A stretch of 64,000 nucleotides of DNA from a virus. Below are positions 1-34,739 of the stretch, piece after piece (within the stretch, counting starts at the first letter, position 1; every line of letters starts with the position of its first letter). The DNA is taken from IMG/VR virus record IMGVR_UViG_3300020185_000033, positions 1 through 64,000 of that record. One strand, given 5' to 3'. The translations under genes were made by a program, and so were the position numbers. The notes beneath the pieces are model-generated. The model saw nothing but the letters and a program-made list of their open reading frames with translations, made no database searches and was not told the DNA's origin.

Positions 1-543
1 TGCTGTGATGTTTGAGTACTCAGCTATATAGTTGTTCCGGTTTAATCTACCTATAATGCTTGATCCCACACCTATATGACAGCCCTCACCAACTGTATAG
101 AATGCTATGTATGTGTTAGGTGCTATCACACAATAGTCTTCGACTCTCACAGCATGACTGAACACACATCCATATAACAAACAATGGGAACCTATGTGAT
201 TATTACTGTCCAGTATGCTGTTCTGCATCATGATAAGTGTGTTAACTCCTATCTGATTTATGTCATAAAAAGGAAAACTGCATGAACGATCCACTATGCT
301 GAACCAATTATCAGTGTTTAGATTGTTTACCAAATGTATTTTTAAATCCAATCCGCTTAAAGCACAAAAGAATTGACGTGACTTTGCCCATTCCGGAGGT
401 TGTGCTAGTGCATATTCAACGCTCACCAGCTCTGCATCTACACCATTCGCATTAAAATGTCGGTGTAGTTCTCGATTAATGTTGCCTTTGTTGCCTATAA
501 AACAACATCTTAATCCTCTGTCATGTATAATATCAAACTGCAT
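1..543 (-). CDS. Hexapeptide-repeat (left-handed beta-helix) acetyltransferase, PglD/NeuD-like; truncated at the window edge
   Basis: Not in the ORF track. Manual translation from ATG at 543 (MQFDIIHDRGLRCCFIGNKG...) stays open to base 1. It contains hexapeptide-like runs IGVNTL / IGSHCL / FSHAVRVEDYCVIAP / VGEGCHIGVGSSI. Confidence 0.65.
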   Translation of the reverse strand, partial: MQFDIIHDRGLRCCFIGNKGNINRELHRHFNANGVDAELVSVEYALAQPPEWAKSRQFFCALSGLDLKIHLVNNLNTDNWFSIVDRSCSFPFYDINQIGVNTLIMMQNSILDSNNHIGSHCLLYGCVFSHAVRVEDYCVIAPNTYIAFYTVGEGCHIGVGSSIIGRLNRNNYIAEYSNITA

Positions 544-549
544 TACTGT

Positions 550-1047
550 TTACCAAGTGTGTTGCCAATGTCTAACTGACTCTGCCCAATCTAAATGTGC
601 ATTAACAGCCAAGTACACTGCTGGAGTATGTGAATGAATGTTGCTCAAATGGAATGGATGGTGACTGCTCAGTATAAAAGTCTCCCCAAGCGCCACAGTT
701 TTGCTGTGATACTCATTGTTTCTAGGATCTGTGTAGCCTAACTGACTGGGTTCTTTACCCAAGTATAACAATAACATTGCTTTACGTTCACTGTTTGATG
801 CAAATGAATGCTTGTGACTCTCTCCACCTGCACTGATTGTGAACACGTTCATGCTCATACCACTACGCAATCTCAAGTCTTTAATAGCTTTGGAACCAAA
901 TGCATACATCAAGTCTCCTGGTACACTATGGCTTGTGGTGTGTATGTTCATGTGATTGGGTGGTTCAGGTGCTAGTGAATGTGTATGTTTCTCCACTGCT
1001 GTGCTTATGCTGTTAGCAATTCGTTTGCCTATCATTAATGGTGTCAT
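550..1047 (-). CDS. Hypothetical protein, His-rich, possibly cupin-like
   Basis: 165-aa ORF, ATGA-coupled to the upstream gene; no clear family motif. Confidence 0.5.
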   Translation of the reverse strand: MTPLMIGKRIANSISTAVEKHTHSLAPEPPNHMNIHTTSHSVPGDLMYAFGSKAIKDLRLRSGMSMNVFTISAGGESHKHSFASNSERKAMLLLYLGKEPSQLGYTDPRNNEYHSKTVALGETFILSSHHPFHLSNIHSHTPAVYLAVNAHLDWAESVRHWQHTW

Positions 1048-1736
1048 CGTTGTTTGTATCCTATCTGCATGAAGCGTGTGTACGCAGGTGTAATCATTTC
1101 TCCCACGTATGAGCTTCTACGAACGTCTAGTGGGTATTTTCTTTGTACGTCTGCAATACTGCTACAGGTATTTATATGCCCGTCATAGTCCTCACTGTTA
1201 TTTGTTTGCATCACTATTAACTGATCCTTTGCAACAGTGTCAAACCAATCCTGGTTCATATGCTCACAACTGGTGTTAATGATAATGTCTGGCTTAACAG
1301 TTATAAGTTCTCCACTAGTTTCAAACTGCATGTTACCACAGTCTAATTGACTTACATCTGCTACTACACCTTTATATCGCCAACCGTCTTGCACATACTT
1401 TTGATTAAGTTTCTCTGACTTAGTGATAGCATCAGCATCCATGTCAAAGCCATATACTCTTTGCGGTTCAATAACATGTATTAAAGGTTCCACCAGTGTG
1501 CCAATCCAACTGCCCAATATAGCAACAGTACAACTTCGATCAGGGTGTACAGCATTTAACTGTTCCAGTAACCAATTCTTTGACGCCAACTGCCCTTTGC
1601 TAAACGCATGTGCAGGATAGTAATTGCGATGCTGTATCACATGTTCGAAGTAACTGGGTGCTGGTATATAAAAGCCGTTGTCAATGTACTCGCTTACAGC
1701 CTCCCATGTGTCCAGTTGTATTGTTTCCAGTTTCAC
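1044..1736 (-). CDS. Class I SAM-dependent methyltransferase-like protein
   Basis: Motif-I-like VAILGSWIG, acidic GFDMD, ADV, and IINTSCEH; GTG start overlaps the upstream TGA. Confidence 0.7.
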   Translation of the reverse strand: MKLETIQLDTWEAVSEYIDNGFYIPAPSYFEHVIQHRNYYPAHAFSKGQLASKNWLLEQLNAVHPDRSCTVAILGSWIGTLVEPLIHVIEPQRVYGFDMDADAITKSEKLNQKYVQDGWRYKGVVADVSQLDCGNMQFETSGELITVKPDIIINTSCEHMNQDWFDTVAKDQLIVMQTNNSEDYDGHINTCSSIADVQRKYPLDVRRSSYVGEMITPAYTRFMQIGYKQR

Positions 1737-1885
1737 TTCTTTTGTCTCTCTATTAGTTCTAACACATAACTCAGTTCACCCACACATTTATCTATCACCA
1801 TGTGAGCAACTTCGTTATCGTTCTTGGCACGTTCTTCACATAACATATCTATTCTAACTCTGATGTATTTCTCAACTTTGTCCAT
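1733..1885 (-). CDS. Small hypothetical protein (50 aa)
   Basis: Manual translation MDKVEKYIRVRIDMLCEERAKNDNEVAHMVIDKCVGELSYVLELIERQKK*. GGGAG RBS upstream; fills the gap and its TGA overlaps the next GTG (GTGA). Confidence 0.7.
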   Translation of the reverse strand: MDKVEKYIRVRIDMLCEERAKNDNEVAHMVIDKCVGELSYVLELIERQKK

Positions 1886-4800
1886 TCTGCTCCCAACCAT
1901 TCGTAATCGTTAATCTTGTTTAATTGTTCAGCATTGTCCTTGTGCTTGATAGCAAACTGTTTTCCTTGTTCCGCACCTGCTTTTGCTTCACTTCTAAAGT
2001 ATGCATCAGGTACAGGATGTAACCAACTTTCCAGTCTACGCTGTGCATCAGGATCACGTTCCCTACTCAATGTTAACTTAACAGATTCTCTAAATGCACT
2101 ACGCCATGTACTCTCTGCATCTACATTAAAGTTTGTTACACAACTAATCTGTGGCATTGATTTAAATCTATTACTTAACCCTGTGGTAAAGTCTAAACCC
2201 CAACTGGTTGCACCACGCACTTGTTCTGTGTTAAACAGTTTAACTCCACCGTAACCGTACTCTTCACCCGTTACAGGATTCTTACTTGCCCACACATGTA
2301 CCACATCTTGGTCATACACATCTGGTATGTAATCAAAATTAAAGTCATCATGTACTAGTGCATCAGCATCAACTACCCAAAACAGTTTAGTGTCGGCTTG
2401 TTCTGCACAGTGCTTGTGTGCATTAAAGATACCTTTTAAACCCCTTACATGTTTTACTGTTAGTCCTTTACGTTCGATTGCTTGTATGTGTTGCTCAACA
2501 ACATCTATATCTTCTTTGTAACTGAGCATAAACACGTTGTAAGGTTTAATCTCACTTGCTGGCTGTTTAACATACTGTAACTTACCTGCATCAAGTTTAT
2601 TCAAACGTATCTTATCTGATGTTACTTCTTTCATAACATTAGTTACAGGATTGGGCCAAAGTCTAACTCCACCATAACTCTGTGTTAAACCTGTTGTTGG
2701 ATTAAGTCTTTGCCACACATGTGCTTTACGCACACTGTCTAGTTGAGGTGTATATGAGAATACAAACTGTTCTAGTTCTTGTACGTCATCATCTATTGTA
2801 AAGAACCAATCTTCATTCTCTGATTGTATACTGTCCATGTGTTGTTTAAGTGTACCACTTATCACAAGTTCTTTAAACATGTATTGCTTCCAATGTGTAG
2901 GAACTGTTGCTATTGTGTAAACTTTCTTTAACTTGCTGAAACTGTTATTAACAATCTGTTTAATGCTGTACTGCTTGTCGTCAAACGTGCCTTTGGGTAC
3001 TAGTCGCACACTTCTAAAGTCTTGGTTAGTGTCTTGGAACACATGCACAATATCTTCTTCCCACTTAGTAGGTATAAAGTCGTAGTTCCAATTAGTTGCT
3101 AATGTGATATAAGGATCCATTACCCAATACATAGCACTGTCACATCTAGTATCAAAGTCTGCAAGTTGTTCTAGTATATCCATCTCTCCGTCTAACCAGT
3201 ACTTAGGATATTCTTTTTGCTCTCCAGCCACAGCATCTAGAATAAACTGATCCGGGATACTACAAGTTAACACCTGCTCATCGCTTAACACACTTGCATC
3301 ATAACATGTGGGCCACAATCTAAGTCCGCCATGTCCAATAACTAAACCTTCTGAGTCTGTTCTCTTCCACACATGTACTATGTTGCTGTTATCAGTGTGT
3401 GGTATAATACTCTGAGCAATGATATCTGCATCTAGTTCTATGTCAGGATCAACTGTCCACACATAGCCTACGCCTTTGTGTTTGTTTAAAATTGATTGTA
3501 CTTCTTTACTAGTAAGGTCGTGCAATTGCTCTACGGGCCAAACAGGGTCTTTACTTGCTATGCCAGTCATTTCTTTTAAACTAGGATAACTGTTATCCTT
3601 AACCTCTTGTTGCTTGTAAGTGCCTTTAGGCATTAACTTAACGCCACTGTTCTTACTGTTACCTTTGTGTTGCCATATGTGTACAACTTGACCTTCCCAT
3701 CTGTTAGGTACATAATCAAATGTCCAATCGTCCATTAGTTCAACATGCGGGTCAACTACCCAGAACATATTACTTTTACAATTGTTACTGAATTGATTTA
3801 TTTGTTCTAGTAAACTGCTATCGCTATCCAAGTAACAAACAGCATACTCTTTATGTTCTCCTGCTACAGCATCTATAATTAATTGTTCGGGTATACTACT
3901 TGTTAGTACTTGTTCATCAGTTAGTTTGCTTGTATCATATGTAGTAGGCCACAGTCTTAACCCACCTGCTCCCACAGATGTTTTCCAAACATGTACATTG
4001 CTAATAAACTTTTCGTGCGGTATAATACTTTGTGTTATAATGTCGTTGTCTTGTTCTACATCGGGATCAACTGTCCAAACATAATGTGAATCACTGTGCT
4101 TGTCTAGTATTGCTTGTACACCTGCAACAGTTACTTCTGTTAACTGCTCACAAGGCCATACTGGTTCTTTACTTGCTACCTTAGGCATTTGTTTTAGTCT
4201 ATCGAACTTGTTCTCTATAATTTGTTCTGCACTAGTGTACTTTATATTAGTAGGTAATAGTCTAACACCTGTTTCTCTACTACTACCGTTGTGTTCCCAT
4301 ATATGAACAACGTCTTTATCATACTGTGTAGGGTAATAACTAAAGTCAAAGTCATCTTCTACTTCAACTAAACTGTCAACTACCCACATCATACTAGTGC
4401 TAGTATTACCTGCTAGATTCTCATAGACGCCGTCTAAGCCACGTTCGATGTCTTCTGGCTGTATGTGGTACACTGGAAATTCTTGTTGCGTACAAGCAGG
4501 TTCTCGTATGTATTTAGGTCTACCTTTCTTTTCATCTTTGTGTCTTAAACTAACACCGCCATAGTCGTATTGCTTGTTGGTGATTGGATTAAGTTTCTGC
4601 CATACATGTTGCTTGCCTTCGTCAAACACATTAGGTTGGAAGTTAAAGTCAAATGTTTCTAACACTGTAACGTCTTTGTCTATTACCCAGAACCAATTGA
4701 AACTACTTTCGGCAAGTCCTTGTGCATATGAATCAAACTGTTCAAACTGTATGTCCATTACAACAGGACTAAAGTCGTGTTCTTTTATTTCACCATTCCA

Positions 4801-6423
4801 GTCTGCAGGCATCCAACGTAAAAACCCATTGGCAAATACATGTTGTGTGTTCTTTTCAAACACACTGGGTTGCCACGGTATGCTACTAATAGCATCTTCA
4901 AATGCTGTAGGTACTATCCAACTATCTTCAGCAAGTGATTCAGCTGATGCATCAGTAAATCTGATGGGGTATGTCTTACCACCGACTGGGCTTTGCTCGT
5001 TGTATTTGGTATCGCCACTCCCATTGACTGGAACAAGTTTGATACCTCCTGCTCTGTTGTCGCTGATATTTGTAATTGCTCTTGGGTATTTGTGTTCCAA
5101 GTCATTCGGAAACTTGAATACTTGTATACACTTTTGGTCATGTCGTTGTGGTACATATTTAAAATCCTCGTTTATTTGATGTTCGCTGTCTACAAGCCAA
5201 AACATTTTAGTTCTGCTTTTCCTTGCAGGTGTTTCGTAATCGTTAATGTCGTCTGCATAAAATATATCATAACGTACTGGGCATATATCTTCTTGATGCT
5301 TATGCTTTGTCATGTCAAAGTCTTTGTGTACTAAACGCACACCTCCACATCTGTTATCCCATGCGTCTGTGCAGTCTAACGGATAACGTTCTTCTAAGTG
5401 TCCTGGTATCTTAAACACATGAATGTATTCACGCTCATGTACACTAGGCACGAATAATAGTTTACCATTGAATGTGTAATCTCTATCCACAATCCAAAAC
5501 CAATCAGTCTTACTACGCTCTGCATACTCACTGTATGTTTCTGCTGTAAACTCGTCATCGTCGATATAAAATACATCATACGCTTCGTCTTCTATAGGAC
5601 ATGCTTTGTGTATTTTTATTTCTGCATCTTTAAATTGCTTTGGTACTAAACTAATACCACCCATTGCTTCTGGGTACTTCTCTTGTAATTGGTAAGGCAT
5701 CTTAAACACATGAATCATTTCTGCTTCAAATGGATTAGGTACCCAATCGAAAGTGTGTAAGTTAGTTTTGTATTGTACATCTACTACCCATACATAGTCA
5801 TGATTGTATGTATTACGTTGTGCATACGCTGTAGGTGTCTTTGTAAACAACACAGGATAGTCTGCTTTAGTATCTAAGAACTTGTGATACTTTGTATCTG
5901 CTTGTTTCCAATCGCGTGGATATAACTTAACACCGCCTTCCTGTTTAGGATACTTGTGTTCTAGTTGTCCACGCAAATGAAAACTGTGAATAAAGTTAGG
6001 CTCGAAGTTCCCTGGTGCCCAATCTATATCTTCCCCTAAGATGTATTCACTGTCTATACACCAAACGTGAGTACTGTTAGGATTATGTTCAAAGTAGTTC
6101 CCTGGTGCTTCCTCAAACAACATATCAAAGTATTTCTTACATACCACTTTGTTATGCCATACAGTTTCTTTATTTTCACGTTTGGGTAATAAACTCACCC
6201 CTCCATAATTTTCGCTGTTCCATTTCCATACATGCTGATATTTCTCTGTGTGGGTATCAGGCTTAAAGTCAAATATTTCCCAATCGGTTATCTTTGTATT
6301 AGTATCTACTAGCCAATACATTTTTGTATTAGGCTGTATACTTGTAACCGTGTCTATTTGTTTTGCAAATGGCAATCTTTCTTTTAGTGTGTCGTTGTCA
6401 CCAATGTAAAAAATATCGTACAT
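1849..6423 (-). CDS. Multi-domain glycosyltransferase-like protein with about 14 tandem GT-A-like units
   Basis: Recurring ~100-aa unit W-x-[VI]-D-x-D ... F-x-[FY]-x-P ... H-[VI]-[WF] ... GG-[VIL]-x-L-x-P. The last unit (AHKHCAEQADTKLFWVVDAD...YGYGGVKLF...AFRESVKL) matches the single-domain protein at 28971-29969. Confidence 0.7.
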   Translation of the reverse strand: MYDIFYIGDNDTLKERLPFAKQIDTVTSIQPNTKMYWLVDTNTKITDWEIFDFKPDTHTEKYQHVWKWNSENYGGVSLLPKRENKETVWHNKVVCKKYFDMLFEEAPGNYFEHNPNSTHVWCIDSEYILGEDIDWAPGNFEPNFIHSFHLRGQLEHKYPKQEGGVKLYPRDWKQADTKYHKFLDTKADYPVLFTKTPTAYAQRNTYNHDYVWVVDVQYKTNLHTFDWVPNPFEAEMIHVFKMPYQLQEKYPEAMGGISLVPKQFKDAEIKIHKACPIEDEAYDVFYIDDDEFTAETYSEYAERSKTDWFWIVDRDYTFNGKLLFVPSVHEREYIHVFKIPGHLEERYPLDCTDAWDNRCGGVRLVHKDFDMTKHKHQEDICPVRYDIFYADDINDYETPARKSRTKMFWLVDSEHQINEDFKYVPQRHDQKCIQVFKFPNDLEHKYPRAITNISDNRAGGIKLVPVNGSGDTKYNEQSPVGGKTYPIRFTDASAESLAEDSWIVPTAFEDAISSIPWQPSVFEKNTQHVFANGFLRWMPADWNGEIKEHDFSPVVMDIQFEQFDSYAQGLAESSFNWFWVIDKDVTVLETFDFNFQPNVFDEGKQHVWQKLNPITNKQYDYGGVSLRHKDEKKGRPKYIREPACTQQEFPVYHIQPEDIERGLDGVYENLAGNTSTSMMWVVDSLVEVEDDFDFSYYPTQYDKDVVHIWEHNGSSRETGVRLLPTNIKYTSAEQIIENKFDRLKQMPKVASKEPVWPCEQLTEVTVAGVQAILDKHSDSHYVWTVDPDVEQDNDIITQSIIPHEKFISNVHVWKTSVGAGGLRLWPTTYDTSKLTDEQVLTSSIPEQLIIDAVAGEHKEYAVCYLDSDSSLLEQINQFSNNCKSNMFWVVDPHVELMDDWTFDYVPNRWEGQVVHIWQHKGNSKNSGVKLMPKGTYKQQEVKDNSYPSLKEMTGIASKDPVWPVEQLHDLTSKEVQSILNKHKGVGYVWTVDPDIELDADIIAQSIIPHTDNSNIVHVWKRTDSEGLVIGHGGLRLWPTCYDASVLSDEQVLTCSIPDQFILDAVAGEQKEYPKYWLDGEMDILEQLADFDTRCDSAMYWVMDPYITLATNWNYDFIPTKWEEDIVHVFQDTNQDFRSVRLVPKGTFDDKQYSIKQIVNNSFSKLKKVYTIATVPTHWKQYMFKELVISGTLKQHMDSIQSENEDWFFTIDDDVQELEQFVFSYTPQLDSVRKAHVWQRLNPTTGLTQSYGGVRLWPNPVTNVMKEVTSDKIRLNKLDAGKLQYVKQPASEIKPYNVFMLSYKEDIDVVEQHIQAIERKGLTVKHVRGLKGIFNAHKHCAEQADTKLFWVVDADALVHDDFNFDYIPDVYDQDVVHVWASKNPVTGEEYGYGGVKLFNTEQVRGATSWGLDFTTGLSNRFKSMPQISCVTNFNVDAESTWRSAFRESVKLTLSRERDPDAQRRLESWLHPVPDAYFRSEAKAGAEQGKQFAIKHKDNAEQLNKINDYEWLGAEWTKLRNTSELE

Positions 6424-6704
6424 CAGCCCTTACCTTTTATTAATGTATCTAGTTGTGTGCTGGTTAACGTTATAGGAGTAGCATTAAACAGTTCGCGTTC
6501 CATCCTGCGATCCATGTTGCCCCATGTGAGTTGTACAGAACTCCATTCACAATCGTCCTTATGGAATCTAGCATCAATACCACACACATGACATCTGCCT
6601 TTCATCTTCCACATCATTCTTTCTTCATCGGATAATGATTCATCGTGCAACCACGGTTCGCGTGATATTTTTAGAATTTCCTCTCTGCTAATCGTCTTTG
6701 ACAT
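6423..6704 (-). CDS. Small hypothetical protein with CxxC-x6-HxxxC putative Zn-binding motif
   Basis: Likely ATG start MSKTISREE at 6704 (track start 6761 lies further inside the neighbouring gene); motif CHVCGIDARFHKDDC. Confidence 0.55.
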   Translation of the reverse strand: MSKTISREEILKISREPWLHDESLSDEERMMWKMKGRCHVCGIDARFHKDDCEWSSVQLTWGNMDRRMERELFNATPITLTSTQLDTLIKGKG

Positions 6705-8256: not shown

Positions 8257-8468
8257 CTATATATAAATGGATCATTCTTCCTGATATTATCAAGTTTCTT
8301 CTTTAACATTTCTTCTTCCTCTTCTGAAAGTTCAATGTCATCTAGATCCAAGTCCTGTTCTGTGTTTTTAGGTTTGTCTTCTGTCTTTGGTATAGGATTA
8401 CCGTACAAGTCACCTTGGTCTATAACCTTAGTTGTCTTACCTAATCCATTCATTTCATCTTCGCTCAT
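8253..8468 (-). CDS. Small acidic protein ending DPFIYR, coupled to the carbamoyltransferase
   Basis: 71 aa; AGGA RBS; ATGA overlap with the carbamoyltransferase start. Confidence 0.7.
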   Translation of the reverse strand: MSEDEMNGLGKTTKVIDQGDLYGNPIPKTEDKPKNTEQDLDLDDIELSEEEEEMLKKKLDNIRKNDPFIYR

Positions 8469-8469
8469 T

Positions 8470-18131: not shown

Positions 18132-18132
18132 T

Positions 18133-19502: not shown

Positions 19503-19533
19503 TATTTATCATCTAAGTTAAACAGTGTTTTAA
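19503..19533 (-). promoter_or_regulatory. Late-type promoter GATAAATA (19503-19510) plus upstream 16-bp pseudo-palindromic box (19518-19533)
   Basis: Minus strand TTAAAACACTGTTTAA-N7-GATAAATA in the intergenic gap before the dehydrogenase; the same arrangement occurs at 38486 and 62344. Confidence 0.65.
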
Positions 19534-19541
19534 AGTTGTGA

Positions 19542-20663: not shown

Positions 20664-20667
20664 AACT

Positions 20668-25667: not shown

Positions 25668-25672
25668 GTGTA

Positions 25673-25680
25673 TATTTACT
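25673..25680 (-). promoter_or_regulatory. Late-type promoter AGTAAATA, 5 nt upstream of the SDR ATG
   Basis: Intergenic; same 5-nt spacing to ATG as three other copies. Confidence 0.5.
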
Positions 25681-25692
25681 CTATTGTGTTAT

Positions 25693-26793: not shown

Positions 26794-26829
26794 TTATTTC
26801 TCCGTTATAGTTTATATAGAATAGTTATA

Positions 26830-27153
26830 CTATCTGACGAATAAGCCTTTAAGTTCTTTGCCTTTAGCCATGTCGCCGTTGAACGTCATTTTGCCGCCCA
26901 TTACCAATGATATAGGATTGCCACCTGCTAAGAACATTTCTAACAACGTGTCCTCATTAACAAACCCAACAGTGATATCTGATTTGTCTAACTGCTTGTG
27001 TGCAATACTAAATTCTTTGTCGTGAATACTAACAGAAAATTTACCGTTAGTCTCACTAATAACATTAATATTAATGTCAATATCAATACCATCTGCTTTT
27101 TGTACTTGGAAGTTTTCTTCCAATTGTGTTTTAATTTTATCGTAGTCTAACAT
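26830..27153 (-). CDS. SCP2 (sterol carrier protein 2)-like lipid-binding domain protein
   Basis: 107 aa; C-terminal NPISLVMGGKMTFNGDMAKGKEL fits the SCP2 pattern nP..afm.Gkl.i.Gd; AGGAG RBS. Confidence 0.7.
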   Translation of the reverse strand: MLDYDKIKTQLEENFQVQKADGIDIDININVISETNGKFSVSIHDKEFSIAHKQLDKSDITVGFVNEDTLLEMFLAGGNPISLVMGGKMTFNGDMAKGKELKGLFVR

Positions 27154-27178
27154 TATGTGTTCTCCTCTTGTATTGTGT

Positions 27179-28816
27179 TTACTCTAACAATGCATCTGCT
27201 TCCTCACAGATAAACCAGAAGTCGTGCATCTCTGGAAATGTTGCTAGGAAGTTTGTGTTTCTTCTTATGTCATGTTCTGTAAAAAATTTATAAAAATCTG
27301 CTCGGTCTCTTATTAATTTTTCATTTGATAACTCTACTTTCATAAAATCTAAATTTCTTTTTGCTTTTGCTATCTCAAAATCCTTGAAGCCTTTGTAGTC
27401 GACATAATCCTCATTGGCTTTGTTCTGCTCCATAAAGTCAATTGCTTCTTGCATATATTCTTGATACTGCCCAGGTAGTACTTGTATACTTTGCCACGCA
27501 GGAGCTCTGAGTAATGGAATGTCAAACCATATACGTTGCTCTGGAACTTCCCACCCCATTGCGTATTGATTCTCTTTACTCCATTTTTCTCTAAGCTCTA
27601 AAATTCCCTGCAAGAATTCTTTGAAACTTGTTACACTTAAACAATTAAATGTGTTAATAAAATTGATACTAGTGAATCTTGTTTCGTCTAAAAATCTATG
27701 ACAGTTGCTCCACACAGTCCAAAAGTCCATACCATTACGCATGTACTCTGCTTGTTCGCCCCAACCATCTAAACTACAGAATACACTAAAGTTATGATAT
27801 GCTTTATCATTGTATTCGTATATGTATGTGTAACTGTTATTGTCTTGTTCCTCACATTGTCCAACTTGCATAAACGTTTGTGGTATTTGTTCACGCTCTA
27901 TAACTGGTAGTTCGCTGTCATGATAACGTTTTGCATCAGCACCTATAATAGAATGTTGCCATGTCTGCCAGTCAGTGCCGTCTAATGGATCAGTAACATA
28001 TACCTCAGCACCATGTTGTACGTTGTCTAACTGCTTAACTGCATCTAAAAACTTAACAAACAATTTATCGTTGACAGGACACATGTTTGTTGTTATACTT
28101 AATTCTAAATCTTTATTTGGATTATCGTATACATAATCAAGTACCTTAAATGTATTCTTATCCATTAATGGTTCACCGCCTGTCATACGAAACACTCGTA
28201 GTGTTTTATACATCTCGGGCCACCATTTCCAAAAAGCAGTAACGTATGGGTTAGCATCCTGACTTACTTTAAGTGGCATAAGTCCTTTTTTGTTTAAACT
28301 GTTTATGTTGTTATGCGGTGCTGTAGTTGGATACTCACCGAACTCGTCAATCTCTTCTTGCCATGCAGTACTTAAATGCGGTGAACAATAACTACACTTA
28401 AAGTTACATGCTTGGTTAAAGTTTACTTCTACATAACGTGGATTGATGTTACCACTAGCACCAGCATCCATAATATCTTCTTTACTTTCCTGTGCCCAGT
28501 ATTCTCCACTGCGATATACCCTATCACTTCTGTCGCCTTGGTCTTCGATGTTCCAGCAATAACTACAACCGTCAGGCCTCTCACCTTTAAGCATTTGTCT
28601 TCGTTGTTCTTTCTTCTCTTCGGTGTTATGTAGTGCCGTAATATTTTTATCTAATTCATCTAACGGAATTTTATGTGTGGGAGGGTGATAACAACTGTGT
28701 GTCATACCATTCGTTAAATGCATAGACACTTGACTCCACTTAGCATAACACATGCTAGGACTAATATTGTCTAGTTGTTTTTTTGCCTTATCTGCGGCTT
28801 GATCGTATATGCTCAT
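27179..28816 (-). CDS. Radical SAM protein with N-terminal twitch-like domain (copy 8, AKW...CYHPP subtype) with internal insertion
   Basis: CNFKCSYC; MTGGEPL; TTN; SLDG; N-terminal MCYAKW...SCYHPP...CSYC. Likely start MSIYDQ at 28816 (TAATG overlap with the upstream small gene). Confidence 0.92.
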   Translation of the reverse strand: MSIYDQAADKAKKQLDNISPSMCYAKWSQVSMHLTNGMTHSCYHPPTHKIPLDELDKNITALHNTEEKKEQRRQMLKGERPDGCSYCWNIEDQGDRSDRVYRSGEYWAQESKEDIMDAGASGNINPRYVEVNFNQACNFKCSYCSPHLSTAWQEEIDEFGEYPTTAPHNNINSLNKKGLMPLKVSQDANPYVTAFWKWWPEMYKTLRVFRMTGGEPLMDKNTFKVLDYVYDNPNKDLELSITTNMCPVNDKLFVKFLDAVKQLDNVQHGAEVYVTDPLDGTDWQTWQHSIIGADAKRYHDSELPVIEREQIPQTFMQVGQCEEQDNNSYTYIYEYNDKAYHNFSVFCSLDGWGEQAEYMRNGMDFWTVWSNCHRFLDETRFTSINFINTFNCLSVTSFKEFLQGILELREKWSKENQYAMGWEVPEQRIWFDIPLLRAPAWQSIQVLPGQYQEYMQEAIDFMEQNKANEDYVDYKGFKDFEIAKAKRNLDFMKVELSNEKLIRDRADFYKFFTEHDIRRNTNFLATFPEMHDFWFICEEADALLE

Positions 28817-28974
28817 TACCAATTGTGTATATTGCCGGCTATGATAAAGAAGCAAGTGATAAAGTTTACGCCAACAATAACTGTGCGTATTAAAGCAATC
28901 TTGTCTGCTTCTGAATCCGTTGCGCCTTCCTTTTCGCCTATAGCCTTGGCCCATAGTCTCCAAAGTTGCTTCAT
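28816..28974 (-). CDS. Small membrane protein (52 aa)
   Basis: Manual translation MKQLWRLWAKAIGEKEGATDSEADKIALIRTVIVGVNFITCFFIIAGNIHNW*. ATGA and TAATG coupling on both sides; one transmembrane helix; resembles small proteins I recall from marine T4-like phages. Confidence 0.8.
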   Translation of the reverse strand: MKQLWRLWAKAIGEKEGATDSEADKIALIRTVIVGVNFITCFFIIAGNIHNW

Positions 28975-29969
28975 TGAATTAAACCTTTTTCTAGTAAATC
29001 TTGAATTTGTTTTTCTCTAATCATTGCACCCCAACGCCTAGGATTAACATAAGTTTTCTTAAAGAATCTACACATCTGTGGGTTAGGATCAAACAACATC
29101 ATTTCATTAATATCGCTGTTAAGTTCTGCTCCCAAGTCTTTGATTGCGATCTCTAACATTTCTTTATTCCATGTTGCTTTAGAGTATCTACATACTTCGT
29201 CTCCAGGGAAACGAGGTAATACATCATTATTAAAAAATGATTTAAACCAATCGTAGTCCGATATTAAATTGGTATCCCAATCACTTAACACAGTCATTTT
29301 ACAACCAAGTCTTGCACCATACATAGCCCATAAGCCGTTGTCCACATCACTGCCTATGTTACACCATGTTTGTAATCTGTTATAGTTACCGTACCATATC
29401 TTATCTTTGAATTCGTCCGGTCTAACTCTTGCACCTTGGTCAGTACTCATCTTTACACCTTCTCTAAACCCTGCTCTAAAGGCTTGGAAAGGACTTGCTG
29501 TTTGATGTACTTCACTGAACGTGTCGTTGAGTTGTATGTAATCTAACTTCCAACAAAACTCCATGCCCTCACCGTCTGTCGCGGCTTCATGTGTGTTGAT
29601 GCTTTTAGTATATTCAGTAGGCCAACATTTAAGTCCACCGTTACCATACACTAATCCGTTGAGAATGTTTTTAGCATTCCAACTAAAGATGCATTTGCTT
29701 ATGTCATTGCCATCATGGTCTGTTTCAGGTACGTCAAGTTCCTGTTCAAAGAAATCGTCCATTACAATGTTATCACCGTCAACTGTGATAAAGCGATCTG
29801 TTTCTGATTGTTCAGCACATGCCTTATGTGCGGCATCGAAGCCTGTAACTCCGTGTACTCTTTTTGCCCAAGGGACTTTATTTAATAAGTCTGCCCAATG
29901 TTCTTCACAGTTGGGCTCGTCGTAACTGATATAGAATATATCAAGTTCGGTAACATCAATTTTTGCCAT
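28971..29969 (-). CDS. GT-A-fold glycosyltransferase-like protein (single-domain paralog of the 1524-aa repeat unit)
   Basis: DIFYISYDEP, RVHGVTGFDAAHKACA, FITVDGD (DxD), GLVYGNGGLKCWP, AFRAGFREGVKM; ATG at 29969 after AGGA. Confidence 0.75.
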   Translation of the reverse strand: MAKIDVTELDIFYISYDEPNCEEHWADLLNKVPWAKRVHGVTGFDAAHKACAEQSETDRFITVDGDNIVMDDFFEQELDVPETDHDGNDISKCIFSWNAKNILNGLVYGNGGLKCWPTEYTKSINTHEAATDGEGMEFCWKLDYIQLNDTFSEVHQTASPFQAFRAGFREGVKMSTDQGARVRPDEFKDKIWYGNYNRLQTWCNIGSDVDNGLWAMYGARLGCKMTVLSDWDTNLISDYDWFKSFFNNDVLPRFPGDEVCRYSKATWNKEMLEIAIKDLGAELNSDINEMMLFDPNPQMCRFFKKTYVNPRRWGAMIREKQIQDLLEKGLIQ

Positions 29970-29997
29970 GTGCGTGTCCTGTGTTTTGCTATGCACA

Positions 29998-30005
29998 TAT
30001 TTATC
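29998..30005 (-). promoter_or_regulatory. Late-type promoter GATAAATA
   Basis: Immediately after the stop codon of 30006-30599 and upstream of the GT-A-like gene. Confidence 0.55.
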
Positions 30006-30599
30006 TTATTTAATGCTGTAGTTCTCGAAAATCTTGTGAGTGTACACACTATATGACTCGGGTAGTGTATCTTTATGCTTTACTTTTGCTGTATCGCTGT
30101 TTGCAAACTGTTCTACATTAACAACAACACGTTCTATTAATATATGCGGATCTCTTAAAGGTGTAACATAAAATACTAACTGCTGTTTTACTTTTAGTGC
30201 CTTACTTTTAGTGATCTTCCATTCTTTCTTTGTTGTAGAAAACTGTATATCGAAATCTTTTGATGTTGCTGTTATTTCGGATAAAAAGTCTCTACTTGCT
30301 TTAACTTTTTCCGATTCAAATGTTTTTAATTTAATATGACACACATCATGTTCATCTTCTTCTATCATAAACTGTGCTACACTCTTACCACCTTCGGTGA
30401 TTTGAACATCTGTTGTTTTGAACATATAAGTTTTACATTCAGGATATAAACTCATATCAGGCACTGTTAGTCCTTTATATACTATGTCGCCTTCGTCATT
30501 GTATACCATGTGCGTGTGCTCTTGTTGAGCTTTTACTACAGCACTTAAATTGCCATCTAATTCTGTTTTTGCTAATGCAAGCCTTTCACCTGGTGTCAT
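30006..30599 (-). CDS. Hypothetical protein
   Basis: 197-aa ORF with GAGG RBS, ATGA-coupled; no recognised motif. Confidence 0.6.
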   Translation of the reverse strand: MTPGERLALAKTELDGNLSAVVKAQQEHTHMVYNDEGDIVYKGLTVPDMSLYPECKTYMFKTTDVQITEGGKSVAQFMIEEDEHDVCHIKLKTFESEKVKASRDFLSEITATSKDFDIQFSTTKKEWKITKSKALKVKQQLVFYVTPLRDPHILIERVVVNVEQFANSDTAKVKHKDTLPESYSVYTHKIFENYSIK

Positions 30600-31459
30600 T
30601 TGTTTACCTCTATTTCCATCTGTTGTATTTTATCTTTTGTCATCCATGCTTTGTCCACATAGTGAAAAGGCTGAGTGATTTGAAAGTTGCCTATCTTAAA
30701 GTTATTATATGATTTATAGTATGTTGGAATACTGTCTGTCCAGTTATCTTCTATTTCGCTAGTGGGAATATTTTGTATAAAACTTTTCATATGCACAAAC
30801 GTAGGCAAGTCTGTTATATGATCCATTGTGCATTCGTCTTCTATACCTAGTAATTGTATTGCTAAACTAAATGCCACATCGGCACTTAACCAATCTGGTT
30901 TGCCTTTAGGCATATATTTAAAATAAAACCTTTCCCAATTTTCAAAGATAATTTGTATCATTTTAAACAGTTCACTTGCTAAGTCACTTTTCTTAAAATA
31001 AAAGAATGCAGTATATACATTAGGCATCTTGTTTCTTTTCATGTCTAATCTATAATGCATATCAACTGCTAATTCGTCTCTGTATGTTTTTACATTTGTA
31101 CATGCCCATACATCTCTAGTAGACAAGTGGTCCCACCAATGACTTACATCAAACGGAAATATCATGTCTGTGTCTAGTATCACAGTCTCTTCGTAAGGAG
31201 ACATATAATAGTATTTCCATTTATTATTAATTTTCCATTGTGCATCTGCGGCATGGTCTTCCCATGGTATATCTACAATATGGTCAAACGCACGTTTGTG
31301 TTTAGGCTGTATTAATGCTTTAGTCTTGGCATCTACACACACCGTAAGACTGCTTATAGTGCCCTGTGTTAGTTTTAAATTCAATGCGAGTGCATACGCT
31401 TGTTCTAGATAATCAACCGTGTCGTTGTTTTGTGCTATTACTATGTAGCCTTTACTCAT
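30596..31459 (-). CDS. GT8-like / nucleotide-diphospho-sugar transferase
   Basis: KGYIVIAQNN..DY...A, SPYEETVILDTDM (DxD), YTAFFYFKK; paralog of 33490-34374. Start at 31459 (ATGA overlap). Confidence 0.7.
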   Translation of the reverse strand: MSKGYIVIAQNNDTVDYLEQAYALALNLKLTQGTISSLTVCVDAKTKALIQPKHKRAFDHIVDIPWEDHAADAQWKINNKWKYYYMSPYEETVILDTDMIFPFDVSHWWDHLSTRDVWACTNVKTYRDELAVDMHYRLDMKRNKMPNVYTAFFYFKKSDLASELFKMIQIIFENWERFYFKYMPKGKPDWLSADVAFSLAIQLLGIEDECTMDHITDLPTFVHMKSFIQNIPTSEIEDNWTDSIPTYYKSYNNFKIGNFQITQPFHYVDKAWMTKDKIQQMEIEVNK

Positions 31460-31878
31460 TTGAGCTTCTTCTGTATCCATTTTATAGCCGCATATATTGT
31501 TAATCCATATACTGCAAATATTGTTAGTGGTACTGCCATATTAAGTATAACATCTATATCCAAGAACAACAAGTCCTTAGTAAAGTCGATGATTGCTTCT
31601 GCATCACCTTGTGCTGGCTGTACTGTTTCCGTTACATAATCATACTCCATACCAGCATCCATCATCATTGTGTTTAGTGCATCTTCTGTTAAACACTTGT
31701 AATATTGCTCCGGGCAATCTCCGACACCGCCATATCCTGTGCCAACTGGACTACCAAATATATCTGTGCCACCGGCTTCTAATTCTGCCTGTGTTTCGCC
31801 AGTTACACCAATCGGCACTGTGTTGTATGCATCGTCACCGACTGTGTGTCCGTGAAATGTTAAATCTTCATCATTCAT
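31456..31878 (-). CDS. Acidic protein with C-terminal transmembrane anchor
   Basis: 140 aa, GGAGG RBS; hydrophobic VILNMAVPLTIFAVYGLTIYAAI followed by basic KWIQKKLK. Confidence 0.65.
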   Translation of the reverse strand: MNDEDLTFHGHTVGDDAYNTVPIGVTGETQAELEAGGTDIFGSPVGTGYGGVGDCPEQYYKCLTEDALNTMMMDAGMEYDYVTETVQPAQGDAEAIIDFTKDLLFLDIDVILNMAVPLTIFAVYGLTIYAAIKWIQKKLK

Positions 31879-32044
31879 CTAATTTCCTCCATGACTCTTT
31901 AAACATGCAGAATCTTCTGTTACCGTCTTTTGTCTCGTAAACAAACTGCATTGATAAGAGTTGTACTACTTTGCCTTCGAACTTACCATTCAAAGTGCAA
32001 GTGTGTTCTATATTGTCTCCTAAGTTAGGTGTCTTTGTTGCCAT
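31871..32044 (-). CDS. Small hypothetical protein (57 aa)
   Basis: Manual translation MATKTPNLGDNIEHTCTLNGKFEGKVVQLLSMQFVYETKDGNRRFCMFKESWRKLDE*; TAATG-coupled to the upstream gene and fills the gap exactly. Confidence 0.7.
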   Translation of the reverse strand: MATKTPNLGDNIEHTCTLNGKFEGKVVQLLSMQFVYETKDGNRRFCMFKESWRKLDE

Positions 32045-33303
32045 TATACTGTCTCCATCATTCTGTCAACTAGTGGATGTATGCCTTCTTCATAATTAAA
32101 TGTGTGGTAACGCAAATAATTTTTAGAATGCTCAAAAAACTTCCGCTGATTAAATTCCAACTTTTGCTGTACAGAATCACTGTAAAATAACTTGTGCAAT
32201 TCCTCTGCAGGAGTTTCTATTATTTTACTTATTTGTTCTTCTACTTTACTTAGTCTTTCTTCTGCATCTAGTATGTCATCGTATGATTCGTCGAAGAATT
32301 CGGGAAAACTTTTAAAGCCTAATCTCTTCCATGTTTTCAAACTGCCTGGCAGTCCACATATCAGCATTGGTAATTTAAAAAATGCAGACTTTAATGTTTT
32401 CTCTGTAATGTATGCATACGTTATATCGTCTGTGTGTAATCTACTAGAGTACGGACTATGGTCGTAATTAAATACTTCCTTATGGTCAAAAAATGTTTCG
32501 GTGCTAATATAAGTGTATGCAGAGTTCATCATTTCATGCTCAGGTCTATCCTGTAACTCAGATTGAGTAATCCTGTTAGAAAATGGTGCATCGCTTGTGT
32601 CTCTCTCCCAGTATGTGTACTTGCATTTATCCTTATGTTTCTCACATAAATTAACAACGGCAGTTCTGTGATCTTTTACAATATTATTAAGTGTTAATAC
32701 ATGGTATTGCTTTTTATTATCTGTTTGTTCATAAACAGTATCACGGGCTAAGTTGTTGTAAATCATTCTAGGAAAATATATAGAATAATAGTTTATTGTT
32801 GCTTTAGGCAATGCTTGCCTATATAAATCGACTACATCATAATTTACTAAATCCATAATAATATTTTCTTGCTTTACTTTCTGTGTAGCATTTATGAACC
32901 ATTCTATTCTCTTTTGCTCGTTGCCTCCATATAAATCGTAGCCGTTTGAAAAACGCCATTTTAGATTATCGAAGCCAGGTGTTCCCACATACTGATCTAT
33001 TATTCCTTCTAGTTCGTCGCAATCAATGTCGTACCATGGATACACCCTAAAGCCTAAATCAATTATGTACGATACTGTATTTCTTCTTGCATCTGCTTCC
33101 ATCATTTGCTTCAATGTAAATGAGGTAACTTGACGTAACTTTATATCATACCCATATTCTGTTAATTTAGTAAGCACTTGGTGGTCATAATTGTGTGTAC
33201 AAATTTTATTATTGAACTCTCCTAAATAGAACATGCCCCTATCTTGCATCTGTGGTTTGGGCGTAAAATAATGCACAAGTTTTTCAATCACTGCACGTTC
33301 CAT
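32044..33303 (-). CDS. GT10-like glycosyltransferase-fold protein
   Basis: TLNN...HR, YISTETFF...YITEKTLKSAFFKLPMLICG...LGFKSFPEFFDESYD; clear paralog of 20668-21990. Confidence 0.55.
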   Translation of the reverse strand: MERAVIEKLVHYFTPKPQMQDRGMFYLGEFNNKICTHNYDHQVLTKLTEYGYDIKLRQVTSFTLKQMMEADARRNTVSYIIDLGFRVYPWYDIDCDELEGIIDQYVGTPGFDNLKWRFSNGYDLYGGNEQKRIEWFINATQKVKQENIIMDLVNYDVVDLYRQALPKATINYYSIYFPRMIYNNLARDTVYEQTDNKKQYHVLTLNNIVKDHRTAVVNLCEKHKDKCKYTYWERDTSDAPFSNRITQSELQDRPEHEMMNSAYTYISTETFFDHKEVFNYDHSPYSSRLHTDDITYAYITEKTLKSAFFKLPMLICGLPGSLKTWKRLGFKSFPEFFDESYDDILDAEERLSKVEEQISKIIETPAEELHKLFYSDSVQQKLEFNQRKFFEHSKNYLRYHTFNYEEGIHPLVDRMMETV

Positions 33304-33497
33304 TCCATGTTTTCTTCTAATGCATACTGTACGCCATGTATGTAATCTCGATCCTCTTCGCTAAGAACCTCCCATGCAAACGTTACCTTATCTAGTAAGT
33401 CGTGTACTTTTTGCGGGTCTGCAAGATGTTCATTTGCTTCCATGATACGTTGTATCTCATCCATCCTGTTGTTTAATTTATCTCTTAGGTTAGACAT
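33288..33497 (-). CDS. Small hypothetical helical protein (69 aa)
   Basis: GGAG RBS; overlaps neighbours in the cluster's coupled style. Confidence 0.65.
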   Translation of the reverse strand: MSNLRDKLNNRMDEIQRIMEANEHLADPQKVHDLLDKVTFAWEVLSEEDRDYIHGVQYALEENMEWNVQ

Positions 33498-34374
33498 ACT
33501 GTAATAACTCCTTGCTTATTCTGTTTATTGCCCACTTGTTCATTACATGAATATCCAGTCCCCGCCACTTACATAACATAAAGTCGCCTAAACTTTTTGG
33601 TTTCTCGAGATAAAAAATAAGTTCATTTAGTGCCGGAGCACTGTGAACGTCATCTGTATCAAAAGTTTTATATAAGTGCGGGACCGGAAGTTGTGGAATA
33701 CCTTTGTCTACGAAACCACCTAGCATGTGTGCCGCGACACTAAAACTGTAGTCATTTCGGTATAGTTGCCCAGGCCATTTGTATACGTCTTGGTAAAATT
33801 CTCTGTTGTCTCTAACATGCTTAACGGTCTCAAACATTTGTTCTGCAAATTCTGTTTTACGAAAATACACCACAGTTGCCCAATACATTGTTATGCCAGT
33901 TGGACTTAAACGTCTTAGTGTATCGTCAGTACGTTCGGTCATTATATCTTCGTATGACCAGTTCATCATAAACTCGTTGTCATGTCCCCAACAACTATTC
34001 AAGGTGTTGCTTAATATTAAATAATCAGCGTCTATTAGTATAGTTTCGTCGTAAGGTGATATATTGTATGCGTCACATCTATCAACGTTGTAGAAGGGCA
34101 ATGGCTTGCTTGTATGGCTGGTATCTTTGTACAGTCTGGTATTGGAACGTTTAAAGTTTTTATCTTTTTCTGTAATTACAATATTAGATACTGCATCGTG
34201 TACAAAGTCTTTGCCTAGTTTTTCTGTTGTATAATCGTAACTGTGTTGGTTTGTTACAACTGTGATGTCATGTATGTCGCAATTTTTTTTGATTAGATAT
34301 GCATTTACTACAGCAAGTTTAAGATAGTCTATTTCCTCATTGTTATGAGCAAACATTAAAAAGCCTTTAGTCAT
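33490..34374 (-). CDS. GT8-like / nucleotide-diphospho-sugar transferase
   Basis: KGFLMFAHNN..DYL, SPYDETILIDADYL (DxD), YWATVVYFRK, RND, HVMNK. Confidence 0.7.
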   Translation of the reverse strand: MTKGFLMFAHNNEEIDYLKLAVVNAYLIKKNCDIHDITVVTNQHSYDYTTEKLGKDFVHDAVSNIVITEKDKNFKRSNTRLYKDTSHTSKPLPFYNVDRCDAYNISPYDETILIDADYLILSNTLNSCWGHDNEFMMNWSYEDIMTERTDDTLRRLSPTGITMYWATVVYFRKTEFAEQMFETVKHVRDNREFYQDVYKWPGQLYRNDYSFSVAAHMLGGFVDKGIPQLPVPHLYKTFDTDDVHSAPALNELIFYLEKPKSLGDFMLCKWRGLDIHVMNKWAINRISKELLQYV

Positions 34375-34726
34375 CTAAATCTAAATCTATCAACTTATGT
34401 ACTTTTCTACTTTTCCTCAACTTAGTGTATTCTGCGTGATATTCGTTAGTTGCTTCAAAGTACCTTGATAGAATTTCCTCTAGAAACTCGTCTAAATCTT
34501 CGACTTGAATTGGATTGTTATAAACATCCAGCAGTACTGCATTGTCATATCCTTTGTCCATTAATAGTTTAACAAACGATATAAGCTCTTGTGATATTTC
34601 AAACGTACCTCCATTAAGACTGTAACTTAACAGTGTTTGAACTTTTGCCTTCAAGGCATTGTGTTGTACATTAAGAGTTGTTCTGTAGTTCGCGAACTCT
34701 AATGCTTTAGTTAGTTTAGACGACAT
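34367..34726 (-). CDS. Hypothetical phage protein, possibly tail-fibre assembly-related
   Basis: About 119 aa; start MSSKL lies 5 nt after GATAAATA; follows the fibre genes. Function is inference from position. Confidence 0.55.
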   Translation of the reverse strand: MSSKLTKALEFANYRTTLNVQHNALKAKVQTLLSYSLNGGTFEISQELISFVKLLMDKGYDNAVLLDVYNNPIQVEDLDEFLEEILSRYFEATNEYHAEYTKLRKSRKVHKLIDLDLDD

Positions 34727-34731
34727 AGTCA

Positions 34732-34739
34732 TATTTATC
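34732..34739 (-). promoter_or_regulatory. Late-type promoter GATAAATA heading the enzyme cluster
   Basis: Directly downstream of a terminator; 5 nt upstream of ATG 34726. Confidence 0.65.

Follow-up and report, generated by a model that had tools for sequence, protein, structure and literature searches.

The stretch of DNA analysed here, which we call the window, comprises positions 1 to 64,000 of the viral record IMGVR_UViG_3300020185_000033, that is, the first 64 kb of a linear IMG/VR record of 75.8 kb, estimated to be about 21% of the genome. Our subject is a gene island on its minus strand (34732..1) that follows the tail-fibre genes directly and encodes eight radical S-adenosylmethionine (SAM) enzymes, a SAM synthetase (MetK), seven glycosyltransferase-like proteins, and a set of further glycan-type enzymes. 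The island contains 31 co-oriented open reading frames (ORFs), overlapping at 18 of their 30 junctions, plus about four small ORFs in the larger gaps, and this agrees with the original prediction, made from the letters alone, of a co-oriented and mostly overlapping cluster behind the fibre genes.

The island and its enzymes

The source phage is uncultured, and its sequence is present in marine metagenomes of at least nine studies. A related genome, G001, is 340 kb long and 91% complete, and its gp6 is 64% identical to that of the window, so we regard the window phage as a jumbo phage. Every ORF from 62353 down to 1 lies on the minus strand, and the order upstream of the island is gp25, a gp6-like gene, a giant ORF of 6342 aa, g34, g33, and finally g32, which is rich in Ser, Thr, and Gly. 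The best cultured matches of the gp6-like protein are Salicola phage SCTP-2, the PA5oct group, and Atu_ph07 (35–39% identity; 38% to SCTP-2 and PA5oct).

The predicted count of eight radical SAM paralogues (g08–g10, g12, g13, g19, g20, and g24) was borne out, with all eight being full-length members of the NCBIfam family NF033640 (N_Twi_rSAM) at 300–364 bits against a cut-off of 170. Their mutual identity is 20–36%, and they are old paralogues. The CX3CX2C motif, the GGEP motif, and four N-terminal Cys are conserved in 8/8; in the alignment of all eight, C152, C156, C159, and G212–P215 are invariant, and the four invariant Cys precede the radical SAM core. This N-terminal Cys domain gives a Pfam SPASM match at residues ~6–116 in five of the eight and aligns to the BtrN twitch in profile comparison. 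The nearest solved enzymes by profile search are SkfB (E 7e-8) and BlsE (E 1e-6), the latter being the radical SAM decarboxylase of cytosylglucuronic acid, followed by viperin, the GDGT-macrocyclic archaeol synthase (PDB 7tol), MoaA, and BtrN; every one of these matches is weak. We found in the literature no characterised member of NF033640 and no paper on its reaction. Public sequences of the family matching at E <= 1e-30 form at least 7,304 clusters at 50% identity, and they include natural fusions of the N-twitch radical SAM with GT2, TPR, or Sel1 domains. Many N-twitch radical SAMs are also fused in tandem, with two to three per protein of 800–1400 aa (P0140–P0164, P0238, P0263, P0264, and P0146 among the fusion representatives). 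The placement of MetK among the radical SAM genes is consistent with a high consumption of SAM.

The seven glycosyltransferase-like genes fall into three paralogue families (g29/g18/g17, g27/g30, and g25/g04), and here the original prediction needed other support than Pfam, which gives zero matches for all seven; g17, g18, g25, g26, g29, g30, and g31 are without a match in Pfam (E 10), in PHROGs, and in single-sequence PDB searches. For g29, an AlphaFold model built from 19 sequences (pLDDT 86) has a GT-B fold, and its Foldseek matches are BshA, TarM, and EXT (E ~1e-4), all of the top ones being GT-B. VIA comparison of this model gives PimA at Z 11.2 (rmsd 5.3, 282 aligned), the T4 beta- and alpha-glucosyltransferases at Z 10.3 and 9.6, and FUT9 at Z 9.6 with the highest identity, 14%. 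The “GT10-like” label given to g17, g18, and g29 came from the resemblance of their YITEK-type motif alone; the GT-B fold of the g29 model sustains the broader class, but there is no Pfam match to the GT10 family at E 10 for any of the three, and GT10 structures score no better against the model than other GT-B families. In the second family, the Pfam GT8 model gives no match to g27 or g30 even at E 10, while the profile of their family finds glycogenin (GT8) at E 8e-5, the match spanning residues 18–131 with the DxD motif among them; g30 has 952 homologues, and among the best 120 of these 952, at 65–94% identity, none carries a Pfam domain.

The model of g25 (pLDDT 71) shows a GT-A fold in residues 3–160, with VIA matches to B4GALNT1 (Z 11.0, rmsd 3.1, 141 aligned) and ThuS (Z 10.4) and Foldseek matches to SunS/ThuS and to the PBCV-1 capsid glycosyltransferase A64R; a search of PDB by sequence with the g25-family profile gave no match. 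Since nucleotidyltransferases of the same fold score Z ~9.5, we infer the transferase activity of g25 rather than read it from the fold. With the same family profile, hmmsearch finds 13 domains in g04, the last at full length (335 bits). The repeats of g04 correspond to ~70 central residues of the g25-type GT-A domain (DxD plus the next strands), spaced ~100 aa apart, and the g04 homologues of other phages measure 1000–1950 aa.

As for the remaining enzymes, MetK, the carbamoyltransferase, the nucleotide-sugar dehydrogenase, the 2-oxoglutarate (2OG) oxygenase, the desaturase, and SCP2 were confirmed by Pfam or NCBIfam. The short-chain dehydrogenase/reductase (SDR), the pyridoxal phosphate (PLP) enzyme, the acetyltransferase (a hexapeptide-repeat protein at 26.7 versus 27 bits), and the methyltransferase g03 stand as weaker calls, and for g07, labelled SGNH, Pfam returns DUF6071 only. 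The PLP-fold protein g14 is also CobD-like (E 1e-7), far under the cut-off of that model, and the g03 family profile matches thermospermine synthase (E 0.009). The transferases are all predicted to be soluble, and only g11, with four transmembrane segments, and the small g28 are predicted membrane proteins. Among all window ORFs, Pfam gave no match to a flippase, polymerase, ABC transporter, initiating phosphoglycosyltransferase, or ligase; G001 was compared with window proteins only and was not scanned for such surface-polysaccharide families. As encoded, the pathway would therefore be cytoplasmic, with no export machinery found in the window and just two predicted membrane proteins.

The transcriptional signals of the island are those of its structural neighbours. 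On the coding strand, GATAAATA lies at 62344, 38486, 34732, 29998, and 19503, at the heads of gp25, g34, g31, g25 (occupying 29998–30005), and g16, respectively; GGTAAATA at 35866 precedes g32, and AGTAAATA at 25673 precedes g21, both also at gene heads. Motifs of the GATAAATA type were found at gene heads only; what is non-random is their placement, while the raw count (6 versus 8.7 expected) is not above chance. The motif thus heads the cluster and recurs inside it at 29998, 25673, and 19503, as had been claimed, and it is kept at the orthologous sites of G001, before g34, g32, g31, g25, g21, and g16, with G001 proteins being 31–87% identical to those of the window. The hairpin tail of the boundary element between g32 and g31, together with GGTAAATA, is also found at the same place in G001. 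From this succession of hairpin, T-run, and GATAAATA, we conclude that the island is transcribed as a unit separate from the baseplate genes, though one that belongs to their class. T4-like cyanophages use NATAAATA as their late promoter (PMC2984593), and a promoter of the NATAAATA type is present at gene heads here, as in T4-type late units, which suggests that the island would be expressed late. Three of the five GATAAATA sites (19503–19533, 38486–38517, and 62344–62375, minus strand) have the element TTAAAAC 17–18 nt upstream, and it also stands ahead of the g34 homologue in G001, which suggests a two-part late promoter. A scan for sigma-70-like promoters showed no enrichment (56 versus 68 expected). 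RNA libraries of four studies contain short, near-identical island fragments as contigs without timing, and we do not count them as expression evidence, since they may be DNA carry-over.

The features of the locus are collected in Table 1. A scan for small ORFs, down to a length of 25 aa, gave just three that are conserved, measuring 57–71 aa; the one of 57 aa with three Cys is possibly a small partner or substrate protein. The gene g31 precedes g30 in G001 and in the related loci L002–L004 and L056. Near the far end of the window (62490–63408), a 94-aa ORF and an alpha/beta hydrolase gene form the sole plus-strand genes, flanked by gp25 and by a phage lysozyme domain gene (63568–63999, minus strand).

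Table 1. Features of the island, its structural context, and the counterparts in Ralstonia phage RsoM2USA (L and G numbers denote related loci and genomes)
Feature	Positions	Strand	Assignment	Basis
g32–g37	34791..62353	-	baseplate/fibre context	PHROG and Pfam matches
g37	61967-62353	-	gp25	PF04965
g36	57555-61964	-	gp6-like wedge protein, 1469 aa	phrog_10646, 1019 bits
g35	38521-57549	-	giant protein, 6342 aa	single ORF between gp6 and fibre genes
g33	within 34791..62353	-	tail fibre	phrog_19602
Boundary element	34732..34776	-	12-bp hairpin and T-run (34747-34776), then GATAAATA (34739-34732)	abuts g31 start
g31	34367..34732	-	121 aa, first island gene	no Pfam or PHROG match
g30	33490..34374	-	GT8-like glycosyltransferase, DxD = DAD	family profile, RsoM2USA ORF353
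Small ORF	33291..33515	-	~69 aa, g29/g30 gap	counterparts in L002, L003, L033
g29	32044..33303	-	GT-B fold glycosyltransferase, GT10-like YITEK motif	AlphaFold2 model, Foldseek, VIA
Small ORF	31874..32065	-	57 aa, 3 Cys, g28/g29 gap	48-77% conserved, 8 viral loci
g28	31456..31878	-	140 aa, acidic, C-terminal membrane anchor	one hydrophobic segment; no family match
g27	30596..31480	-	GT8-like glycosyltransferase, DxD = DTD, g30 paralogue	family profile; phrog_1903 (function not assigned)
g26	30006..30599	-	197 aa	no family match; conserved in L002-L004, G001
g25	28971..29996	-	GT-A fold glycosyltransferase (DGD), helical C-terminal half	AlphaFold2 model, Foldseek, VIA
g24	27179..28963	-	N-twitch radical SAM with ~100-aa insertion	NF033640, 327 bits
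g23	26830..27153	-	SCP2-like lipid-binding protein	PF02036, E 4e-7
g22	25693..26793	-	SAM synthetase MetK	all three MetK domains, E 1e-29 to 1e-56
g21	25071..25667	-	short SDR, 198 aa (weaker call)	adh_short, E 6e-7; TGxxxGxG, YxxxK
g20	23389..25071	-	N-twitch radical SAM	NF033640, 319 bits
g19	21987..23423	-	N-twitch radical SAM	NF033640, 300 bits
g18	20668..21990	-	GT-B-type paralogue of g29	29% identity over 328 aa to g29; FITEK motif
g17	19542..20663	-	distant g18/g29 family member	weak g18 match, E 6e-4; QITEK motif
g16	18133..19452	-	nucleoside diphosphate (NDP)-sugar 6-dehydrogenase	PF00984 and PF03721; GGACHPRD catalytic-Cys motif
g15	17340..18215	-	2OG-Fe(II) oxygenase, prolyl-hydroxylase-type family	PF13640, E 6e-12
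g14	16349..17356	-	PLP-fold enzyme (weak)	Aminotran_1_2, E 4.6e-5
g13, g12, g10, g09, g08	9195..16374	-	five N-twitch radical SAMs	NF033640, 302-364 bits
g11	12970-13734	-	delta-9-type desaturase, between g12 and g10	FA_desaturase, E 1e-12; His boxes
g07	8470..9219	-	DUF6071 protein	PF19547, E 4.5e-11
Small ORF	8256..8480	-	~71 aa, acidic, g06/g07 gap	conserved in G001, L113
g06	6688..8256	-	NodU/CmcH-type carbamoyltransferase	PF02543 and PF16861, E 2e-38 and 8e-52
g05	6423..6761	-	112 aa	no family match
g04	1849..6423	-	1524 aa; 12 truncated g25-like units and complete C-terminal GT-A-like domain	hmmsearch
g03	1044..1736	-	Rossmann-type SAM-dependent transferase-like	Methyltransf_12, E 0.11 (weak SAM-fold signal)
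g02	550..1047	-	165 aa, last conserved island gene	31% homologue at G001 island end
g01	1..543	-	hexapeptide-repeat acyltransferase-like, cut by contig end	PF00132, E 4e-6, 26.7 bits vs cut-off 27
RsoM2USA ORF354			g31-like	36% identity
RsoM2USA ORF353			g30-like	33% identity
RsoM2USA ORF352			g27-like	38% identity
RsoM2USA ORF350			g25-like	52% identity
RsoM2USA ORF349			radical SAM	46% identity to g24
RsoM2USA ORF348			second g25-like gene	
RsoM2USA ORF347			g03-like	

Conservation of the module in phages and bacteria

A scan of viral contigs for the g29 family returned at least 340 encoding stretches, from which 78 loci were kept and examined. N-twitch radical SAMs are present at 61 of these 78 loci, with up to eight in 20 kb, and the dehydrogenase (g16), the carbamoyltransferase, and a g25-like gene at 39, 26, and 25 of the 78, respectively. 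The desaturase (6/78), SCP2 (9/78), and MetK (8/78) are all confined to close relatives. In G001 the island is complete and its gene order unchanged, with ten radical SAMs and with genes gained and lost inside it. The g02 homologue is there the last island gene before a strand switch, from which it follows that nearly all of the island lies within the window; g01 has no homologue in G001. The distant locus L056 (25–55% identity) retains the order g34, g33, g32, g31, g30, g27, g25, radical SAMs, g16, and g06, and in 4/4 jumbo relatives the module lies 25–35 kb downstream of gp6 on the same strand. Linkage to structural genes in relatives, which had been set beforehand as a test of the predicted attachment of the cluster to the tail module, held in G001, L056, the four jumbo relatives, and Ralstonia phage RsoM2USA. 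What stands is thus an island of glycan-type enzymes attached to the tail module and carrying its own MetK amid the radical SAMs.

Among cultured phages, the module was found only in RsoM2USA (MG752970), in a minimal form; megablast with 16 kb of the island and tblastn with g29 gave no match in cultured phages. The gene order of RsoM2USA is ORF363 (gp25), ORF362 (gp6), ORF361 (giant), fibre-region genes, and ORF354–347, the same as in the window, with seven core-gene homologues at 31–52% identity. It differs from the window in having one radical SAM and in lacking MetK, GT-B transferases, dehydrogenase, and carbamoyltransferase. Given that RsoM2USA has the core only, we consider the marine island to be this core with many added genes, and the marine additions are nested within the core, between the g24 and the g04–g03 homologues. 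All eight genes ORF347–354 are annotated as hypothetical, and ORF361 and ORF356 were detected in virions (PMC8504454). The homologue of the giant g35 is ~6500 aa in G001 (44–52% identical) and 2541 aa in RsoM2USA, the latter being the virion-detected ORF361.

In cellular genomes, scanned at one genome per species with four of the eight radical SAM paralogues as queries, N-twitch radical SAMs are found mostly in Bdellovibrionota and in some Bacteroidota. In Bdellovibrionota they commonly occur in several copies, next to g25-like, g03-like, and g14-like genes (L084 and L085 are loci of these predatory bacteria carrying such gene sets), and g03-like genes accompany g25-like genes and N-twitch radical SAMs in phages, in RsoM2USA as ORF347, and in Bdellovibrionota alike. 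At one Bdellovibrionaceae locus they are joined by radical SAMs of other kinds, by a methyltransferase and a desaturase, and by an Asp/Asn hydroxylase. The locus of a Bdellovibrio isolate carries four GT2 genes and a fibre of 1355 aa ending in a Peptidase_S74 chaperone domain, and S74 fibres also adjoin the module in five viral loci. Contigs with the phage-type island also occur in bacterial metagenome-assembled genomes (L113, L081, L080, L093, L120, and L123), binned as Gammaproteobacteria, Porticoccaceae, Haliscomenobacter, and an unclassified bacterium; the proteins of L113 are 46–80% identical to window g04–g12. These are probably mis-binned phage contigs and at best a weak hint of the host.

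A proposed glycan pathway and its alternatives

We tentatively favour, with a probability of roughly 0.4, a late cytoplasmic pathway that builds a glycan and tailors it by radical chemistry, most likely on host-recognition proteins. That the island encodes glycan assembly and tailoring is argued by its three glycosyltransferase classes, the dehydrogenase, carbamoyl and acyl transfer, the SDR, the PLP-fold enzyme, and the 2OG oxygenase. A virion acceptor concerned with host recognition is favoured because of the deep fibre linkage, the late-type promoters, and the failure to find export machinery in the window, and a protein acceptor because the GT-A core of g25 resembles peptide S-glycosyltransferases (SunS/ThuS) and the capsid enzyme A64R, g15 is of the prolyl-hydroxylase type, and TPR and Sel1 fusions exist. 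The S74-fibre locus of Bdellovibrio, together with the five viral S74 loci, may by analogy be a hint of the same. A coupling of radical SAMs to glycosyltransferases is seen in the 61 of 78 loci that carry both and in the GT2 fusions.

In the proposed pathway, the core would consist of two GT8-like enzymes, one or two GT-A enzymes, one N-twitch radical SAM, and the SAM-fold transferase g03, with three GT-B transferases and seven further radical SAM paralogues as lineage additions. The added NDP-sugar 6-dehydrogenase would make a uronic acid donor, and the transferases would build an oligosaccharide out of nucleotide sugars supplied by the host and by the phage. Each radical SAM would abstract a hydrogen from a sugar or an acceptor residue, so as to oxidise, epimerise, decarboxylate, or cross-link it, with the phage's own SAM synthetase paying for the SAM consumed as co-substrate, and the remaining tailoring enzymes, among them the added carbamoyltransferase, acyltransferase, SDR, PLP-fold enzyme, and 2OG oxygenase, would finish the structure. 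The most likely acceptor would be one of the upstream-encoded fibres g32–g34 or the 6342-aa protein, all of which would fold in that cytoplasm during the same late phase.

More doubtful than the pathway itself is the specific proposal that the N-twitch radical SAMs perform new radical chemistry on the glycan or on glycosylated residues of host-recognition fibres, with jumbo phages and Bdellovibrionota sharing a means of diversifying or hardening their attachment proteins at one edit per paralogue; examples would be C–H oxidation, epimerisation, uronic acid decarboxylation, and sugar–protein cross-links.

Several points weigh against decoration of virion proteins. The glycan, the substrate, and the modified protein are all proposed from genes, and the late timing from motifs. 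The desaturase, SCP2, and DUF6071 genes point to lipid and are not explained by protein decoration, and the Bdellovibrionaceae locus, too, has a desaturase and LpxO-like genes close to its N-twitch radical SAMs. The fold matches of the modelled glycosyltransferases have low TM-scores (0.25–0.45), and the T4 DNA glucosyltransferases are among those of the g29 model. A glycan made by the phage could be exported by host machinery, and the genes may form a mosaic instead of a single pathway. Finally, an S74 fibre beside the module was rejected as a rule for bacteria, being found in only 2 of 69 bacterial loci.

The main rival, which we consider rather unlikely but the best of the alternatives, is that the island remodels the host envelope, altering lipopolysaccharide, capsule, or a glycolipid via host carriers and host export. 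Its purpose would be to block superinfection or to prevent the sticking of progeny to debris, as has been proposed for the host recognition clusters (HRCs) of pelagimyophages, and envelope modification is indeed what was proposed for cassettes of GT8, UDP-glucose dehydrogenase, and radical SAM genes beside fibres (PMC7029224). The window island has a membrane desaturase, SCP2, and an anchored small protein, and in Bdellovibrionaceae a desaturase and an Asp/Asn hydroxylase adjoin N-twitch radical SAMs. The GT8 and GT-B families are, moreover, typical lipopolysaccharide enzymes. However, among the window ORFs nothing matched an initiating phosphoglycosyltransferase, Wzx, Wzy, an ABC transporter, or a ligase (G001 was compared with window proteins only), and every transferase is predicted to be soluble. 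A lytic phage using late-type promoters has little time left to change the cell surface, and an envelope model does not call for so tight and deep a fibre linkage.

It is less likely still that there is no single product and that the island is a mosaic hot spot behind the fibres, in which a small fibre-linked core was joined by separate modules, namely a radical SAM/GT-B/dehydrogenase/carbamoyltransferase module and the free-standing MetK, desaturase, and SCP2 genes. This is consistent with RsoM2USA having the core only, with the confinement of desaturase, SCP2, and MetK to close relatives, with the gains and losses inside the G001 island, and with the described hypervariability of such clusters (PMC7029224). 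The parts are, nevertheless, bound together by start/stop overlaps and common promoter motifs, MetK has radical SAMs on either side, the additions are enclosed by the core between the g24 and the g04–g03 homologues, and GT-B, radical SAM, dehydrogenase, and carbamoyltransferase genes co-occur well beyond close relatives.

A soluble specialised metabolite, such as an aminoglycoside- or nucleoside-like glycoside directed against the host or competitors, seems improbable to us. The gene set does resemble that of such clusters, with a TobZ/NodU-type carbamoyltransferase, BtrN-like twitch radical SAMs, a PLP enzyme, an SDR, and glycosyltransferases, and the nearest solved relatives by profile include BlsE (E 1e-6) and BtrN; these matches, though, are weak and generic, Pfam shows no scaffold-forming enzyme, resistance gene, or exporter among the window ORFs, the TPR and Sel1 fusions suggest protein partners, and the conserved fibre linkage would be left unexplained. 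Least probable of all is the hypermodification of phage DNA, with bases decorated by modified sugars against restriction, for although the g29 fold matches both T4 glucosyltransferases (Z 10.3 and 9.6) and radical SAM and PLP enzymes take part in thymidine hypermodification, neither the island nor its surroundings have a hydroxymethylase, DNA kinase, or other base-activating gene, the known DNA-modifying enzymes work while the DNA is being replicated, so that late-type promoters and a position in the structural module do not fit, and in Bdellovibrionota the trio of radical SAM, g25-like, and g03-like genes stands beside GT2 genes and a fibre gene.

Relation to known systems and significance

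Clusters of this kind are not new, although the island had been put forward as a candidate new system. Similar ones were described in 2020 as pelagimyophage HRCs, with GT8 glycosyltransferases, UDP-glucose dehydrogenase, and radical SAM cassettes by the tail fibres (Zaragoza-Solas et al. 2020, PMC7029224); these clusters are hypervariable, and modification of the host O-chain was proposed for them without a test. A T4-like marine genome with 12 radical SAM genes had been reported in 2017 (PMC5332604). The window shares with the HRCs of pelagimyophages and cyanomyophages the joining of fibre genes to glycosyltransferases, a sugar dehydrogenase, and radical SAM cassettes, and all of these belong to marine myophages. 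It differs in that the window phage is a jumbo phage of ~340 kb with gp6 nearest to SCTP-2, PA5oct, and Atu_ph07 and not a T4-like pelagimyophage, and the radical SAM family, the conserved core, and the promoters were not identified in the HRC paper (PMC7029224). We found in the literature no description of the identity of the radical SAM family in such clusters or of its chemistry, nor of the conserved core with its minimal cultured form, the promoter architecture, or the Bdellovibrionota link. The NF033640 entry itself corresponds to the window in its eight full-length members with their N-terminal auxiliary-cluster domain, whereas eight to ten diverged copies per operon beside MetK are not described there.

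Virion glycosylation as such is known: capsid and tail-tube glycans of mycobacteriophages are reported by Freeman et al. 2023 (cited in PMC12619734). In mycobacteriophages and in PBCV-1 (A64R, PDB 2p6w, which is among the fold matches of g25), viral glycosyltransferases are likewise encoded with structural genes, and they modify virion proteins in the cytoplasm. Radical SAMs are absent from these systems, and, in contrast to the window, which is known from genes alone, mass spectrometry has demonstrated their glycans. The SunS and ThuS glycocin S-glycosyltransferases resemble g25 in the GT-A core, and BtrN, SkfB, and BlsE resemble the radical SAMs in profile nearness and, for BtrN, in the twitch alignment, but identity is only ~10–14%, the twitch comes first in the window proteins (a permuted domain order), and no precursor peptide or aminocyclitol genes were found in the window.

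In summary, the island class is already known in the literature, and there is a real chance of new enzymology. Its radical SAMs belong to a large family without a known reaction, and the island is widespread in aquatic phage contigs. If its product is placed on the fibres, it would be a new layer of control over host range and stability in abundant marine phages, and it would be the first viral glycan edited by radical SAM enzymes. The eight-gene form of RsoM2USA, in which the partners are annotated as hypothetical, makes this question directly testable.

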